From contig CAVYCN010000013.1 of assembly GCA_963767005.1 (NCBI GenBank), positions 1-41,397 on the forward strand: a DNA stretch of 41,397 bases. The letters run 5' to 3'. The position numbers and the translations under genes were made by a program. Source of the stretch: an uncultured Actinomycetes bacterium (GTDB taxonomy: Bacteria > Actinomycetota > Thermoleophilia > UBA2241). Positions 117 through 41,397 of this stretch are shown here, piece after piece; within the stretch, counting starts at the first letter, position 1; every line of letters begins with the position of its first letter. The notes under the pieces were generated by a model that was not told the origin of the DNA, searched no databases, and saw only the letters and a list, made by a program, of their open reading frames with translations.

Positions 117-1538
117 TCAGCCGATCAGGCCCTCGTGGACGAGGGCGCGCACGGGATCGGCATCGACCGGCGGGGCGGCGCCCGCCCGCATGAAGGGCAC
201 GACCAGCCGCACCCGTTCGTAGGCCGTGCGCGTGCCGGCGCCGAGCGCCGGCGTGCCGCGCAGGTCGATGGCCTGGGCCGAGACCATGAGCTCGACGGCG
301 ACGATGCCCTCGCCGCGGTCGACCACCTCGGTGAGCCGCCGCGCCGAGAGCGGCAGGTGGGTGGCGCGATCCTCGACGCCCTCGGCGCCGGCGGAGCTCG
401 TCACCGTGAGCGAGACGGGCTGGGCCAGCAGGCAGGCTTCGGCGGCGAGCGACTGCGCCGTGATGGCCAGGATGCTGAGGCCGAGGTCGGGGTCGCCCTC
501 GGCGAGCAGGCCGGTGGGCAACCCCGACCACGGCGTGTCGAGCAGCTTCACCGCGCGCTCCGACGCCGCGACGAGCATCGAGGCGAGGGCGATCCGTACG
601 TAATCGAGCGCGGCCGACAGGGCGACGACCTCGTAGACCGACGTAGAGAGGATCAAGCCCTCGTCGAGCGCCACCAGCGGGTTGCCCTGGGCCGCGTTCA
701 GCTCCACCTGCAGGAGCGTCTGTGCGTGCTCGAGCGCCGTCCGCGCGGCCGCCTGCACGGGTGGCATGCTGCGGTAGGTGAGCGGGTCCTGGAGGTTGCG
801 GGCCGTGCCCTCCTGCCAGAGGTAGCTGCCGTCGAGCAGCACGCGCAGGCGGGCGAGCGTGCGCGCCAGCACGGGGTCGGGCCGGGCGCGCTCGACGGCG
901 GGGTGCAGCACGCTCGGGTTGGCGGCAAAGCCTTCGAACGCCAGGGCGCCGGCCGTGTCGGCGGCGTCGACCAGACGGGCGGCGTCGGCCAGGGCGAGCG
1001 CCGCCAGACCCGTGCCGTAGGCGCCCGAGTTGATCAGCGCGAGGCCCTCGCCGGGAGCCAGGTCGACGCCGGCAAAGACGGCGTCGGCGAGGTCGGCCAT
1101 GGCGGCGAGGTCGGACGCGCCGAGCGATCCGAGCGAGCGGACGGCGGGCCGCAGGTCGTCGTTCAGGGCCTGGGCGAGGCGCTCGGCGAAGAGCGGCCGC
1201 AGGCACGTGGCGCCGCGCGCCAGTTGTCCGGCGAGCACGAGCATGGTCGCGCGGACGGCCTCGGGTGCCGCCGTCGGGCCCTGCCCGGCGCGGCTCTCGG
1301 CGACCTGGCGCCAGCCGAAGCCGCCATCGCCCGGGTCGAGGGTCGCGCGCTTCTGCACGCCGAGCCCCGTCGTCAGGCCGTAGGTGCGCACGCCGCGCTC
1401 GCGGGTGGTGTCGGCCAGGGCGCGGGCGCGCGCCATGCGATCGAGCGCCGCGGGTGCGACCACGACCGGCTCGTGCCGGCGCGCCACCGCCACGACGTCG
1501 GCGAGCGTCAGTGCCGAGCCACTCACGATGACGGCCAC
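117..1538 (-). CDS. Aromatic amino acid lyase (HAL/PAL) family protein, MIO-less variant
   Basis: YGLTTGLG inner loop, GSLGASDL, GEGLALIN, QDPLTYRS, GNPL and GVED motifs; GTG start at 1538 with GAGG upstream. Confidence 0.88.
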   Translation of the reverse strand: MAVIVSGSALTLADVVAVARRHEPVVVAPAALDRMARARALADTTRERGVRTYGLTTGLGVQKRATLDPGDGGFGWRQVAESRAGQGPTAAPEAVRATMLVLAGQLARGATCLRPLFAERLAQALNDDLRPAVRSLGSLGASDLAAMADLADAVFAGVDLAPGEGLALINSGAYGTGLAALALADAARLVDAADTAGALAFEGFAANPSVLHPAVERARPDPVLARTLARLRVLLDGSYLWQEGTARNLQDPLTYRSMPPVQAAARTALEHAQTLLQVELNAAQGNPLVALDEGLILSTSVYEVVALSAALDYVRIALASMLVAASERAVKLLDTPWSGLPTGLLAEGDPDLGLSILAITAQSLAAEACLLAQPVSLTVTSSAGAEGVEDRATHLPLSARRLTEVVDRGEGIVAVELMVSAQAIDLRGTPALGAGTRTAYERVRLVVPFMRAGAAPPVDADPVRALVHEGLIG

Positions 1539-1744
1539 GCAAGCCTCGTCTTGAGCGGGAAGACCTCGGAGGCCACGGAGAGCCCGAAGACGATCGCGAG
1601 CACGATCATCGGCACGTACGACTCGAACGGCACGTTGGTGGCGATGCCGAGCGCGCCGATCGCGACGACGACGACGAGCAGGTGGCGCCGGGCGCAGAAC
1701 CGCCCGAGGCGCCCCAGCCGGCTCACATGCTCCGCGCCTTCCAT
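1523..1744 (-). pseudogene. Short membrane ORF resembling an internally deleted MMPL transporter remnant
   Basis: N-terminus RLGRFCARRHLLVVVV resembles an MMPL start; SYVPMIVLAIVFGLSVASEVF resembles the MMPL motif PxxxFAxxFGLSMDYEVF. Confidence 0.5.
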
Positions 1745-1998: not shown

Positions 1999-2568
1999 AT
2001 GACCGCACCATCGGTACCGGCAGGCGACGGGCGCGCGGCGCTCGACGCGCGGCGGCGCGCGCTCGAGCTCGGCGCAAGCGACGCGCTCGAGCTGTCCGGC
2101 GGCGCGGTCGTCACCGCCGAGTGGGTGAGCCTGAAGTGTCGCTACGGCGGCTGCTCGGTCGGCCGCTGCCTCACCTGTCCGCCGTTCTCGCCCGAGCCCG
2201 AACGGACGCGGCGCCTGCTCGACGAGTACGACCGGGTGCTGCTGCTGCGGCTCGACGTCGCGCCGCGCGATGCCGGCGGCTGGCTCGCTCACAGCCGGCG
2301 CCTGGCCGGCATCGCGCTCGACCTCGAGCGCGAGCTGTTCCTCGCTGGGTCGTACCGGGCTCTCGCCCTGGCCGGCGGCCGGCCCTGCGACCGCGACGAG
2401 CCCTGCGGCCGGCCCGACGAGTGCGAGGTGCGCGGCCTGGTGCGGCCCGGCCCGGCCGGCTGCGGCATCGACGTGTTCGCCACGGCGGCAAGCGGCGGCT
2501 GGCGCATCGACGTGGTGCGCGGCGCGTCCGACCCGTACCACCTCTTCGCCCTGGTCCTGATCGATTGA
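1999..2568 (+). CDS. DUF2284 family Cys-rich metal-binding protein
   Basis: WVSLKCRYGGC..CLTCPP, LERELFLAG and RPGPAGCGIDVFAT motifs. Confidence 0.8.
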   Translation: MTAPSVPAGDGRAALDARRRALELGASDALELSGGAVVTAEWVSLKCRYGGCSVGRCLTCPPFSPEPERTRRLLDEYDRVLLLRLDVAPRDAGGWLAHSRRLAGIALDLERELFLAGSYRALALAGGRPCDRDEPCGRPDECEVRGLVRPGPAGCGIDVFATAASGGWRIDVVRGASDPYHLFALVLID

Positions 2569-17230: not shown

Positions 17231-19066
17231 ATGCAGCAGAGGTCACGTCGGTAGCGGAACGGACTGGCGCTCGCTGTGGCCGCGGTGCTGGCCGCCGGCG
17301 TCACGTGGGGAGTGGTGGGCGCCCTGGCCGCCGCGAGCCCGACCCCGTCGGCGTCGTCGGGCGCCCTGATCCTCCACGTCGGCTGGACGACCGAGCCCGA
17401 CAACCTGAACCCGTTCATCGGCTACGAGTCGTCGGCCCTCGAGATCTTCCACCTGAACTACGACTTCCTGGTGGGCTTCCGGGCGGGCGACCTGCAGCCG
17501 CAGCCCGAGCTCGCGACGAGCTGGTCGCACTCGCCCGACGGCAAGACCTGGATCTTCCACCTGCGCCGCGGCGTGACCTGGCAGGACGGCGCGCCGTTCA
17601 CGGCGCGCGACGTCGTCTTCACGTACGAGACGATCATCAAGGACCAGGCGAGCAACTTCACGACCTACACGGGCTTCATCAAGGACGTCGTCGCGCTCGA
17701 CGACCACACCGTGCGGTTCGACTGCACGAGCCCCAAGGCGAACATGCTCGGCATGGTCGTCTACATCCTGCCGGCTCACGTCTGGTCCAAGGTCTCGGCC
17801 AAGACCCTCGCCAGCAGCTACCCGAACGACCCGCCACTCGTGGGGACCGGGCCGTTCCAGACCGTCCAGTGGGTCAAGGGCAACTACGTCCGCCTGGTCG
17901 CCAACAAGCACTACTGGCGCGGCGCCCCCAAGATCGACGAGATCATCTTCCAGTACTACACGAACTCCGACACCATGGCCTCCGACCTCAAGGCTGGCCG
18001 GCTGCAGCTCGCCTGGGACATCCCCCAGGCGCAGGTCGCCAGCACGAACGGCCGTGACGGCCTGACGGCCTACGGCGGCGTGCTCAACGGCTTCGACGAG
18101 CTCGGCTTCAACTGCTACACGGGGGCGTCGTAGCTCGGCGCCGGCGTGCTGCGCGACTGGCGGTTCCGGCAGGCGCTGCAGTGCGCGGTCGACAAGCAGA
18201 AGATCGTGCAGATCGGCTACGAGGGTCACGCGGTGCCGGCGACCACCATCATCCGCGCCGGCTATTACAGGCAGCCGCTCGACTGGCACTGGCAGCCGCC
18301 GGCCGACCAGACGTACACGTTCGACCTCGCCAAGGCCGGCCAGATGCTGACGGCGGCCGGCTATCCGCTGCGCAACGGGGTGCGGGTCGACAGGAGCGGC
18401 AAGCCGATCGTGCTGCGACTGTTCGCCCGCAGCGAGTCGGTGACCGACCAGCAGGTCGCCAAGCTCATCGTGGGCTGGTTCGGGGAGCTCGGCCTGAAGG
18501 TCAAGCTCACGATCATGGACGAGGGCACGCTGACGTCGCACATCTTCAACACGACGGGCGCCGGGGTCTACGCGCCCGACTACGACATGTTCCTGTGGTA
18601 CTGGTACAGCGACCCCGACCCCGACTTCATCCTGTCGGTGCTCACCAAGAGCCAGATCAATGGCTGGGGCGACACCGGCTTCGACGACCCCGCCTACGAC
18701 GCTCTCTACGCTCGCCAGGAGGTGACGGTCGACCCCCAGGCCCGCAAGCAGATCGTCTGGCAGATGCAGCAGCTCATCTACCGGGAATCGCCCTACATCC
18801 CGCTCGTCTATCCGGAGTGGCTCGAGGCCTACAACAGCAAGGACTGGAGCGGCTGGGTGCGCTCGCCGGCCGGCAACGGACCGGTGTTCTACTCCGAGTA
18901 CAACATCGACACGTTCCTCGACGTCCACCCCATCGCCACGGCGAGCGGCGGCGGCAGCCCGGTCGGCCTGTGGGCCGGTGCCGGCGCGGCGGCGATCGTC
19001 GTCGTGATCGTCGTCGCCGTGGTGCTGGGCCGGCGCGGACGGCAACAGGCGGTGGAGGAGGCGTGA
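17231..19066 (+). CDS. Family 5 (Opp/Dpp) ABC solute-binding protein with C-terminal TM anchor, interrupted by two in-frame TAG codons
   Basis: LATSWSHSPDGKTWIFHLRRGVTWQDGAPFTARDV signature, GTGPF, FRQAL; ATG 17231 after GGAGGGG; TAG at 17252 and 18131 in the same frame. Confidence 0.8.
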
Positions 19067-19115: not shown

Positions 19116-20360
19116 ATGCGCACGCTGAGCTGGGCAGATGTCGAGGACATCCTGCTGGGCGCGAGCATCTGCGGCTGCGGCGGCGGCGGCGAGCTCGACG
19201 AAGGCCGCGAGCTGCTGCATGCTGCCTACGTCGGCGGCCTGGCGGTGACGCTGGCGGCGCCCGACGAGCTCGCCGCCGACGTCCTCGTGGCCACGGTGTA
19301 TGGAGTCGGCGGCCTCGTCGTCGGGGCGCCCGAGGCCTACGCGGGCTACGAGCTCGTGTCTGAGCACCCCGGCACGCTGGCCGCCCGGGCGCTCGCCCGT
19401 CACCTCGGTCGGCCGCTCGGCGCGCTGCTCACCGGCGAGCTCGGCGGCACGAGCATCGCCGACGCCTTCGTGCCGGCCGCGCAGCTCGGCGTGCCGGTGG
19501 TCGACGCCGACCCGGTGGGTCGCGCCGTGCCCGAGATCGAGCACTCCCTGTTCAACGTGCACGGCCTGCCGATCGCGCCGCAGGCTGTGGTCAACGAGAT
19601 CGGCGACACGGTGATCGTGACCGAGCCGGTCGACGATCACCGCGCCGAGGCCCTGGTCCGGGCACTCGTCCTCGCCAGCCGCAACGTGGTGTGGGTGGCC
19701 GACCACGGCCTCGCGTGGGGCGAGCTGCGGCGCGCCACGATCGAGGGCGCCATCGGCGGCGCGCAGCGTCTGGGCGCGGCCTGCCGCGCGGCTCGCGCCG
19801 GCGCTGGCGACGTGATCGCCGCCGTGGCTGGGGCCGGCGGCGGCGCCGTGCTCGCGCGCGGGCGGGTCGAGGCCTGTGACTGGGAGGAGCGCGAGGGTTT
19901 CACCTGGGGTGAGACCACGCTTGCCTGCTCGGGAGCGCGCGCAGACGAGACCTGGCGCGTCTGGTTCAAGAACGAGAATCTGATGGCCTTTCGCGACGGC
20001 GAGCCCTGTGTCATGGCGCCCGACCTGATCACGCTGCTGCGGGCCGACGGTACGCCGGTCGGCAACCCCAACCTTCAGGTCGGCGACGAACTCGCCCTGG
20101 TGGCCTTGCCGGCGCCGGCGGCCTGGCGCGAACCGGCTGCCTACGCTGTGCTCGGGCCGCGTGCCCTGGGCTTCGACGTCGACTGCGGCGTCTTCGAGGA
20201 CCGGCTACGGGCGCGCCCGGCGCGGGGCGCTCGACGAGCTCGCGAAAGGCGGCGCTCGCGCCGCCGCGCAGCGGCCGGCCGTGGGCGAACAGTGCGGTGT
20301 CGAAGTCGAGTCGGGCGAGCTTGGCGAGGCTCGCGCCGCTGGCGACCATGTCCTCGTTGA
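19116..20360 (+). CDS. DUF917 family protein (thiohydantoin desulfurase-like)
   Basis: GASICGCGGGG, ELGG, VVDADPVGRAVPE, WFKNENL and APDLI motifs; AAGGAGG RBS; recognisable homology ends near 20200. Confidence 0.85.
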   Translation: MRTLSWADVEDILLGASICGCGGGGELDEGRELLHAAYVGGLAVTLAAPDELAADVLVATVYGVGGLVVGAPEAYAGYELVSEHPGTLAARALARHLGRPLGALLTGELGGTSIADAFVPAAQLGVPVVDADPVGRAVPEIEHSLFNVHGLPIAPQAVVNEIGDTVIVTEPVDDHRAEALVRALVLASRNVVWVADHGLAWGELRRATIEGAIGGAQRLGAACRAARAGAGDVIAAVAGAGGGAVLARGRVEACDWEEREGFTWGETTLACSGARADETWRVWFKNENLMAFRDGEPCVMAPDLITLLRADGTPVGNPNLQVGDELALVALPAPAAWREPAAYAVLGPRALGFDVDCGVFEDRLRARPARGARRARERRRSRRRAAAGRGRTVRCRSRVGRAWRGSRRWRPCPR

Positions 20361-38754: not shown

Positions 38755-39760
38755 ATGAAGGCGATCGTCCAGGACAGATACGGTCCGCCCGAGGTACTGC
38801 GGCTGGCCGAGGTCGAGCCGCCGCAGGTCGGCGACGACGAGGTGCTGGTGCGCGTGGTGGCGGCCGGCGTCGACGCCGGCGTGTGGCACATGGTGGCCGG
38901 CCTGCCGTACCTGGTGCGCGCCATAGGCCTGGGGCTGCGCGCGCCCAAGTCGCGGTTCCGCGGCACCGATCTCGCCGGCGTCGTCGAGGCGGTGGGCGCG
39001 TACGTGACGACGGTCAAGCCGGGCGACGAGGTCTACGGCTCGTGCGACCCGGTGGCCGGCGGCGCCTTCGCCGAGTCGCGCGGGTGCAGGCGGGCCGCCT
39101 CGCGGCCAAGCCGGCCAACCTGAGCTTCGAGCAGGCGGCGGCGGTGCCGGTCTCGGGCGTCACCGCGTTGCAGGCGCTGCGCGACGCGGGCGCGCTGCAG
39201 CCCGGCCAGACGGTGCTCGTCACCGGCGCCGGCGGCGGCGTGGGCAGCTTCGCCGTGCAGATCGCCAAGGCGCTCGGCGCCGCCGAGGTGACCGGCGTGT
39301 GCGGCGGGGCCAAGGTCGAGCTGGTGCGCTCGCTCGGCGCCGACCACGTGATCAACTACGCCGACGAGGACATCACGAGCGGCGCGCGGCAGTACGACCT
39401 GATCCTCGACACCGCCGGCCGGCGGCCCCTCACGCTGCTGCGCCGCGGCTGGCGCCGCGGGCAGTCGCCGTCATCGGCGGTGAGGGCGGCGACCGCTGGC
39501 TGGGCGGTTCGACCGCCAGATGGTCCGGCGCCGGCCGTGTCCCTCGTCAGCGATCAGCTGCCGGCGCTCAACGCGAAGGTGACCAGCGCGACCTCGAGGT
39601 CCTGCGCCGGCTGATCGAGGCCGGCAAGGTCACACCGGTCGTCGATCGCAGCTGCCGCTCGCGGAGGCGCCAAGGCGGTTCGATACGTGCACGAAGGGCG
39701 CGCGAACGGAAAGGTCGTCGTCACGGTCGCGCAGGCCGCGGTCGCGCCCCTACGCCAAGC
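38755..39760 (+). pseudogene. NAD(P)-dependent MDR oxidoreductase (quinone reductase-like), frameshifted; 3' end approximate
   Basis: MKAIVQDRYGPPEVL, GTDLAGVV, TALQAL, GAGGGVGSFAVQIAK, GKVTPVVD and GKVVVTV spread over several frames. Confidence 0.8.
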
Positions 39761-40299: not shown

Positions 40300-41397
40300 C
40301 AGGGTAGTCGGTCAGGGTCTCGCTGCCCTCGTCGGTCACCAGCAGGAGGTCCTCGAGGCGCACCTCTCCGATGCCGGATTGCCGCAGTCCTGGCTCGATG
40401 GCCACGACGTCGCCGGCAACCAGCTCGTCGCGCCCCGTCTGACCGATCGCCGGCGCTCGTGGACCGCCAGGCCGACGCCGTGACCGAGCCGGAGACGTCG
40501 AAGCCTTCGTCGGGGTCGTCGCCCGGGCCGGTACGCTGGGTGCGGGGGGTGGCCGATAGCCCTCGAACACCTCGCAAGCAAGCTCGTGCAGCTCGCGTCC
40601 GGTGATCCCCGGCCGCACCGCCGCGCGCACCCGCTCGAGCGCCGTGCGGACCAGGCTTTCCAGGGCCCGCACGTCGGTTCGGAGATCTCTCCGACCACGA
40701 ACGTGCGGGTCATGTAAACACAGCACCCCGAGGCTTCGTCCTGGGGCCAGAGGTCGATCACCGCGGATCGGCAGATTGGCGGGCGACGGGCCCGAACCTG
40801 GGTCGTGGCCGGGGTACCTGCCAGACGGAGGCCACGATCACGTCGGGGTTCGCCGGCGCCCCGTGGCGCCGGCAGGCGTCGCGGAGCGCATCGCGGACCA
40901 CCTCGGCGGTCACGACCTCTCCCGCTCGCACGAGGCCGTCGCCCTGGGGCACCGAGTAGCGCAGCAGCTCGGCGGCGGCGCGCATGCCGGCGTGCGCCGC
41001 CACCTGGGCGCGGCGGATGCCGGCCAGCTCGGCCGGCGACTTGCACCGGCGCCGCGCCGCCACCGCCTGCTTGTCGGGCTGCAGCACGACGCCGTCGGCG
41101 CGCAGCCGGTCGGCGATCCCGACCGGCATGTCCGGGTCGACCGTCGCCTCGCGCAGGCCCATCGCCGCGACGGCGCGCGAGACCAGCTCACGCTCGATCT
41201 CGTAGGCGGTCATGCCGCTGCCGATCAGCTCGTAGAAGCCCAGGTCGGCGATGTCGTGGATGACGGCGTCGGGCGCGGCCGCCACCACCCGGTCGCGTTC
41301 GAGGTTGCTGGCCGTCACGTGCAGCCGGTCGCCCACGACGGCGAGCAGGAACGGGTCCATGATCGCGACGGGCAGCTCGTGGCGCATGGCGGCCGAG
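40300..41397 (-). pseudogene. M24 Xaa-Pro aminopeptidase family, frameshifted and 5'-truncated by the window edge
   Basis: RRCKSPAEL, IDLWP, YMTRTFV, GHGVGLAVHE, AIEPGL and VRLEDLLLVT across frames. Confidence 0.82.

Follow-up and report, generated by a model that had tools for sequence, protein, structure and literature searches.

Within the histidine ammonia-lyase (HAL) fold, trimethylammonia-lyases that lack the MIO cofactor have been published, as has their principle, namely no MIO and a good leaving group. Their substrates, from which they strip trimethylamine, are ergothioneine, histidine betaine and N-pi-methyl histidine betaine (10.1101/2025.08.13.670108 and, in the part accessible, 10.64898/2026.04.22.720169), and the available text of PMC13405746 restates that ergothionase is without MIO. 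In the characterised enzymes a Tyr acts as base, Gln, Arg and Asn bind the carboxylate, His binds N-tau and Glu binds N-pi, while Lys384 binds the thiolate of ergothioneine (10.1101/2025.08.13.670108; accessible part of 10.64898/2026.04.22.720169). A neutral residue in place of Lys384 predicted a sulfur-free betaine in two of these enzymes (same two sources, the second again in its accessible part). Moreover, MIO-less paralogues can be specific to a ring-methylated betaine, with no activity towards hercynine, as described for SO_3299 in the accessible part of 10.64898/2026.04.22.720169. MIO-less members are also numerous and varied, with 91 of the 116 rows of our FastTree phylogeny lying outside the MIO clade, and an uncharacterised branch is therefore expected, not surprising. 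What such a branch could offer is a new specificity and not a new mechanism.

The window analysed here is the whole of one contig (C13, 41,397 nucleotides) of an uncultured Thermoleophilia bacterium, whose genome assembly (G000) is 3.44 Mb in size and 100% complete. The lyase gene starts with GTG and lies near one edge of the window, which stops 116 bases past it, so the earlier note on this DNA was right that the downstream side is cut off. In a Pfam scan the protein scored 305.5 bits on PF00221 (cut-off 27.3), which places it in the aromatic amino acid lyase fold. An Rfam scan gave no match, no sigma-70-type site was seen in positions 1-2100, and one terminator-like hairpin was found on the forward strand at 84-99, against 0.2 expected. 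A protein search returned 1435 matches among 7991 scored candidates; the best 120 were listed, query included, leaving 119 homologues of 54–88% identity that carry Thermoleophilia or Actinomycetota names. Searches elsewhere yielded two distant plasmid records, PF00221 clusters only in the Atlas, and at least one locus, a distant one, in a metagenome scan.

Table 1. Features of the lyase gene and its surroundings, in window coordinates.
Feature	Position	Strand	Basis
MIO-less lyase of HAL/PAL fold (473 aa) without N-terminal leader	117..1538	-	PF00221 E 8e-91; model pLDDT 87.8; alignment to ergothionase starts at residue 3
Glu389, predicted ligand of imidazole N-pi	372..374	-	118/119 listed homologues; role from 10.1101/2025.08.13.670108
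Ile359, where ergothionase has Lys384 (thiolate ligand)	462..464	-	Alignment; role from 10.1101/2025.08.13.670108 and accessible part of 10.64898/2026.04.22.720169
TSVYE, ergothionase-like (SANFE), not histidase-like (GGNFH)	630..644	-	Sequence and profile alignment
Asn286, predicted carboxylate ligand	681..683	-	119/119 listed homologues; role from 10.1101/2025.08.13.670108
QDPLTYR with Gln250 and Arg256, predicted carboxylate ligands	771..791	-	Each in 119/119 listed homologues; roles from 10.1101/2025.08.13.670108
Site of deletion of about 24 residues, common to the subfamily	1065..1073	-	Alignments
GSLGASDL, cofactor loop (residues 137-144) without Ala-Ser-Gly and as long as SSIGEGDI of ergothionase	1107..1130	-	Sequence and alignments
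Glu81-Ser82-Arg83, specificity site; Ser-His at first two columns in histidases and ergothionase	1290..1298	-	Alignments
Lys63, aligned with a Lys of T. denticola ergothionase	1350..1352	-	114/119 listed homologues (5 without that part)
Tyr53, predicted base for the beta proton	1380..1382	-	114/119 listed homologues (other 5 without this part); role from 10.1101/2025.08.13.670108
67-aa MMPL-family gene remnant, overlaps lyase start	1523..1726	-	66% identity over 41 aa to MMPL ORF upstream of 88% orthologue
GAGG, likely ribosome-binding site, 5 bases ahead of GTG start	1544..1547	-	Sequence
S-Me-THD-like (DUF917) gene, behind split solute-binding protein	19116..20360	+	Pfam scan

The gene is under purifying selection, with a dN/dS of 0.22 against its 88%-identical orthologue (L054). 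This copy is displaced from the usual neighbours of its relatives, the upstream reading frame being an MMPL remnant that gives no sign of a role as pathway partner. Such a setting could speak for a non-catalytic or decaying paralogue; however, the frame is open, its GC3 is 0.945 and the catalytic columns are near-invariant in the 119 listed homologues, and we regard either state as highly improbable.

As the earlier note had read it, the cofactor loop is one residue short; the corresponding loop of the host's canonical histidase (L001) reads GSLGASGDL. The note had judged an indel error unlikely and had asked whether close orthologues restore the Ala-Ser-Gly (ASG) tripeptide. None of the 119 listed homologues has it and all carry the eight-residue loop, and a 151-base contig from public run X1, which may be the source sample, covers positions 1086-1234 across the loop with no difference and no gap; the missing Gly is therefore real and not an assembly error. 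Contigs of three further runs (X2, X3 and X5) span the gene in fragments only. The deletion that follows the loop is a feature absent from the earlier note: this segment has 20 residues in the lyase compared to 44 and 43 in the host's two MIO-type lyases, and the shortening is shared by 119/119 listed homologues.

Although the homologues bear the database name 'histidine ammonia-lyase', their sequences argue against that name. On the hutH model TIGR01225 the lyase reaches 240.6 bits, far under the cut-off of 539. It shares with HutH of P. putida (1gkm) the fold and the columns of Tyr53, Gln, Arg, Asn and Glu, but it has no ASG (GASD instead), Glu81-Ser82 in place of Ser-His, QDPLT (777-791) in place of QDAYS, and TSVYE in place of GGNFH. 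The catalytic-loop Tyr is retained (YGLTTG, 1365-1382), as the note had also said. The host possesses three PF00221 genes, the other two being a canonical hutH on contig C19 (673.4 bits on TIGR01225) and a lyase on C15. In the latter (L002:1378-2901, reverse strand), Ala-Cys-Gly replaces Ala-Ser-Gly; its orthologues have ACG or ASG and adjoin genes of a family-3 amino acid ABC transporter. The FastTree phylogeny was built from 108 of the 150 rows of a representative alignment plus eight locus proteins (42 rows with short coverage or a loop that could not be aligned were left out, and the root is for drawing only). In it, the 25 MIO-type rows form one clade with a support of 100 and the query falls outside. 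A histidase that builds MIO from Ala-Ser-Asp, or that appears MIO-less through a sequence error, is thus barely credible: Ala141-Ser142 is still there, but Ser142 is replaced by Ala or Gly in 7/119 listed homologues, and the MIO-less Swoo_3913 gave no histidine deamination (10.1101/2025.08.13.670108). No other hut gene was found by Pfam scans of 61, then 16 reading frames of the window, in line with the note, and tblastn places hutU, hutI and ftcD of the host on C2.

At the specificity site, the earlier note's reading of a Ser-His to Ser-Arg change did not stand. Pairwise alignments do give it, through a slip of register, whereas profile and multiple alignments put Ser82 in the His column, Glu81 in the Ser column and Arg83 one column on. 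Sisters of 59% identity read D-H-R-A-G against E-S-R-A-G, which together with these alignments settles the His column on Ser82. Among the 119 listed homologues, the column equivalent to His83 holds Ser in 74, His in 32, Thr in nine and a gap in four. Ten of the 119 (L055, L062, L063, L083, L117) read E-S-H, with a His one column past the lost one. Apart from this His, all residues listed for histidine betaine lyase by Bertsova et al. (10.1101/2025.08.13.670108) are retained. Glu389 is shared with the MIO-type lyases of the host and is for that reason no proof of an imidazole ring in the substrate. Compared to the characterised hercynine lyase, the protein differs in one imidazole ligand, next to which it has gained an acid, Glu81.

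The best PDB sequence match of the lyase is the ergothionase of Treponema denticola (6s7j, E 2.6e-41; profile E 8.6e-82 compared to 1.4e-71 for the next). An AlphaFold model (pLDDT as in Table 1) gave Z scores of 40.6 for ergothionase, 40.1–40.3 for aminomutases and 39.0–39.8 for histidases, within a range of 30–41 for all family structures listed. Because these scores tie, the fold alone is undecisive. The Tyr loop (53-64) and residues 381-390 fall under a pLDDT of 50 in the model, and we therefore took no active-site geometry from it. Unlike the fold, the motifs do decide, and as aligned they would place the lyase with the ergothionase type: SSIGEGDI, QDPLSFR, SANFE and IEDH of ergothionase pair with GSLGASDL, QDPLTYR, TSVYE and VEDR, and both proteins have a Lys ten residues past the catalytic Tyr. 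Lys64 and Glu412 of ergothionase are reportedly catalytic, a finding attributed to Maurer et al. in 2019. The two enzymes (6s7j/6s7q for ergothionase) thus have in common the fold (rmsd 2.3, 462 residues aligned), the eight-residue loop, QDPL, the F/Y-E pair, Tyr53, Lys63 and Glu389. They differ in that identity is about 25%, His is changed to Ser and the loop Glu-Gly to Ala-Ser, about 24 residues are deleted from the lyase, and its host genome has no thiourocanate hydratase.

These differences bear on whether the enzyme could be an ergothionase or an S-methyl-ergothioneine lyase, which we consider very unlikely. Ergothionase is the best solved relative, and Ile359, being hydrophobic, could lie opposite an S-methyl group. 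However, the Lys384 column holds Ile in 106, Val in 12, Leu in one and Lys in none of the 119 listed homologues, and ergothioneine itself is for this reason an unlikely substrate. An ergothionase homologue (P0245, E 3e-177 to 6s7j), 29% identical to the query, falls in a Lys-bearing clade apart from it in the FastTree phylogeny. Furthermore, the single urocanase of the host is canonical; it is 85% identical to a hutU accepted by TIGR01228 and by neither of the two thiourocanate models. The distant S-Me-THD-like gene of the window would suit an S-methyl substrate, but it lies 17 kb off and its product reaches 81 and 74 bits where the desulfurase cut-offs stand at 440 and 450; we rejected it as a partner of the lyase.

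Two lyases from Shewanella are also among the closest known enzymes. Swoo_3913 of S. woodyi, a histidine betaine trimethylammonia-lyase that we compared by its published description (10.1101/2025.08.13.670108), likewise lacks Ala-Ser-Gly, has the Tyr/Gln/Arg/Asn/Glu set and bears a neutral residue at the Lys384 column. It differs in keeping His117, which is Ser here, and in being periplasmic and coupled to urocanate reductase, whereas the lyase lacks a leader and no flavocytochrome gene was seen beside it. SO_3299, the N(pi)-methyl histidine betaine lyase of S. oneidensis, is also MIO-less and without Lys384 but periplasmic and tied to a flavocytochrome, a comparison by description and not residue by residue (accessible part of 10.64898/2026.04.22.720169).

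Of 61 related genomes, 21 have a close relative of the lyase (E < 1e-100), and at E 1e-95 relatives were found in 6 of 401 genomes drawn across the phylum. In a quick IQ-TREE analysis of 84 locus proteins (root for drawing only; without duplicates or rows that cover fewer than 330 query positions), the query sits in a 15-row clade with Ser82 (support 100), sister to six rows with Asp/Glu-His. For the gene neighbourhoods, genes were called by our own script and clustered, and representatives were annotated; 56 loci were grouped and seven further clade loci remained ungrouped. The loci are kin and many are cut short, so the neighbour counts are not independent. MttB-family methyltransferase genes lie nearby in 8/15 Ser82 loci and in 14/15 loci of the group that retains His (N-His); an Fe-S protein is encoded in 11/15 loci of the latter group. 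Canonical hutU is found near four of the 15 Ser82 lyases, one of which (L036) begins 48 bases past it. The more distant His-retaining relatives have a cysteine-dioxygenase-like gene in 16/20 loci and an amidohydrolase in 15/20. The best PDB matches of this cysteine-dioxygenase-like protein are 8qfl-8qfr, which we take to be ergothioneine dioxygenase, acting before a desulfinase in a hercynine-producing pathway. A passing mention of ergothioneine dioxygenase is made in the accessible part of 10.64898/2026.05.19.726356. A single-sequence model of the neighbour had a pLDDT of 35.6. The one cysteine-dioxygenase-family gene of the host gave no match to the relatives' gene at E 1e-10.

The Ser82 clade is set apart by an opine-dehydrogenase-like gene 4–28 bases upstream of the lyase in 10 of 15 loci, found in 0 of the 41 other grouped loci. 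Its product best matches 1bg6 in the PDB (E 1.4e-27). In one representative (L055:6874-7980) and its cluster-9 homologues, the His and Asp columns of 1bg6 are kept, a Gln stands for the Arg of the CRS motif and the Arg before the ED motif is missing. The protein may act on N-methyl amino acids and not on opines. Such a neighbour would be in line with a lyase that removes a secondary or tertiary amine from an N-substituted histidine, be it one with an opine-type N-carboxyalkyl group or the mono- or dimethylamine that MttB leaves behind, and none of the 16 neighbouring MttBs tested has an amber codon at the pyrrolysine column. We think this quite unlikely. Three genomes with the lyase (G000, G011, G024) gave no match to the dehydrogenase gene and a fourth (G033) has the dehydrogenase cluster and no lyase, so the two are separable. 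(A PF02317 family search of G000 was blank, but its control was equally blank.) The ten linked loci, being kin, may also go back to one event, and related MIO-deficient lyases depend strongly on the trimethylamino group (Bertsova et al., accessible part of 10.64898/2026.04.22.720169).

An unlikely alternative keeps the same cofactor-free elimination but takes as substrate the betaine of tryptophan, tyrosine or phenylalanine, giving an aryl-acrylate and trimethylamine. Ser82 and Ile359 would widen the pocket and cut its polarity, and IorA and PaaK-like genes accompany 4/15 Ser82 lyases; in the host itself, however, iorAB-paaK also occurs apart from the lyase. Glu81 stands at a column that we take to be that of TAL His89. 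That column belongs to a substrate-switch motif in the accessible part of PMC11432326. On the other side are the hutU-linked loci, the fact that all three characterised MIO-less substrates are histidine betaines (10.1101/2025.08.13.670108; 10.64898/2026.04.22.720169, accessible part), and a literature search that found no paper on a lyase of this kind for a non-histidine aromatic betaine. Literature searches, with most subscription journals outside them, found no paper on the Thermoleophilia clade or on a His-less member. More broadly, it is possible but doubtful that lyases of the Glu81-Ser82 clade act without cofactor on a class of substrate not handled by the characterised enzymes that we found, either a non-histidine aromatic betaine (e.g. 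tryptophan or tyrosine) or an N-alkylated histidine with a leaving group other than trimethylamine. With pyrrolysine-free MttBs and the opine-dehydrogenase-like enzyme it would then form an anaerobic module supplying methylamines to pyrrolysine-using Thermoleophilia.

Our preferred reading, to which we give a probability of roughly 0.55, is that the lyase is cofactor-free and takes trimethylamine off a histidine betaine without sulfur, either hercynine itself or hercynine methylated on the ring. The earlier note's proposal of a MIO-independent lyase for a betaine is in this sense supported, given the ergothionase match, the ergothionase-type motifs and the methylamine-methyltransferase neighbours. 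The likeliest single substrate is plain histidine betaine, which is already in the literature as such, though we name it tentatively; a ring-methylated hercynine is on the unlikely side. In the proposed cofactor-free 1,2-elimination, by analogy with the characterised enzymes, Gln250, Arg256 and Asn286 would hold the carboxylate, Glu389 would bind a ring nitrogen and Tyr53 would take the beta proton. Trimethylamine, a good leaving group, could then depart without an electrophilic cofactor, leaving trans-urocanate or methyl-urocanate.

The gene content of the host supports the preferred reading. G000 has PylS and 39 MttB matches, seven of which exceed the cut-off and each contain a single in-frame TAG, and, like G011, one urocanase. 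With amber-codon MttBs, PylS and a urocanase present, the host therefore likely has a use for both products: trimethylamine would feed the amber-codon MttB methyltransferases, and urocanate would enter the single canonical hutU-hutI-ftcD route on C2. Support also comes from the MttB neighbours, the hutU-linked L036 and the distant relatives' gene matching 8qfl-8qfr, although MttB proximity is weak evidence because MttB is very abundant in these genomes. Counting against it, His83, the N-tau ligand of the characterised enzymes and essential at this place in Geobacillus histidase, where H82L is inactive (accessible part of PMC11432326), is Ser here. The low identity to ergothionase and the separate position of P0245 also tell against it, and the opine-dehydrogenase-like neighbour has no explanation in hercynine cleavage.

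The co-occurrence of paralogues bears on the substrate as well. Ser82 and His-retaining forms are found together in two genomes (L055 with L069; L083 with L077), which counts against the preferred reading and suggests that they have different substrates. The N-His form is present in 9 of 11 genus mates of the host, in eight of them behind MttB and the Fe-S gene; at the matching locus on C4 of G000, MttB is kept while the Fe-S and lyase genes are absent. The Ser82 form may therefore have replaced the N-His form in G000 and hence act on the same substrate. Loss of the equivalents of both Lys384 and His83 would nevertheless fit a new substrate. The pocket of the Ser82 clade is unlike those of the three characterised MIO-less lyases, so that the clade could provide a new reaction releasing trimethylamine. 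As its host has PylS and so many MttB-family genes, the lyase would tie the cleavage of betaines to the metabolism of methyl groups in uncultured Thermoleophilia.

Two other kinds of locus were noted among the lyases of this fold. In L107:879-7094 and L124:6641-12787, His-less lyases (N-S-R, MIO-less, and S-C-C, with ASG, respectively) adjoin hutI and a divergent urocanase that scores 605 bits on hutU and 590 and 583 on the thiourocanate models; these loci are candidates for ring-methylated histidine pathways. Several MIO-less lyases (P0176, P0182, P0185, P0180, P0149, P0150, P0123, P0191) are fused to cNMP-binding, cysteine-dioxygenase, EAL/GGDEF, GNAT or arginase domains, and some of these fusions may be artefacts of assembly or gene calling.

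Finally, four features lie elsewhere in the window. A family-5 solute-binding-protein gene (17276-19066, forward strand) is split by one TAG in frame, codon 286 at 18131-18133, which falls in a variable loop; in a genome with PylS this could be either a nonsense change or a site of pyrrolysine read-through. A zinc alcohol dehydrogenase at 38755-39614 (forward strand) is in two frames (38755-39123 and 39084-39614), owing to a frameshift or an assembly error. At the contig end, 598 bases (40800-41397) align with C5:42997-43593 at 96.5% identity; this repeat or mobile element drew no Pfam match. Divergent from the lyase, positions 1999-2568 (forward strand) encode a DUF2284 metal-binding protein that resembles the C-terminal domain of ArsM/MbdU selenoproteins.
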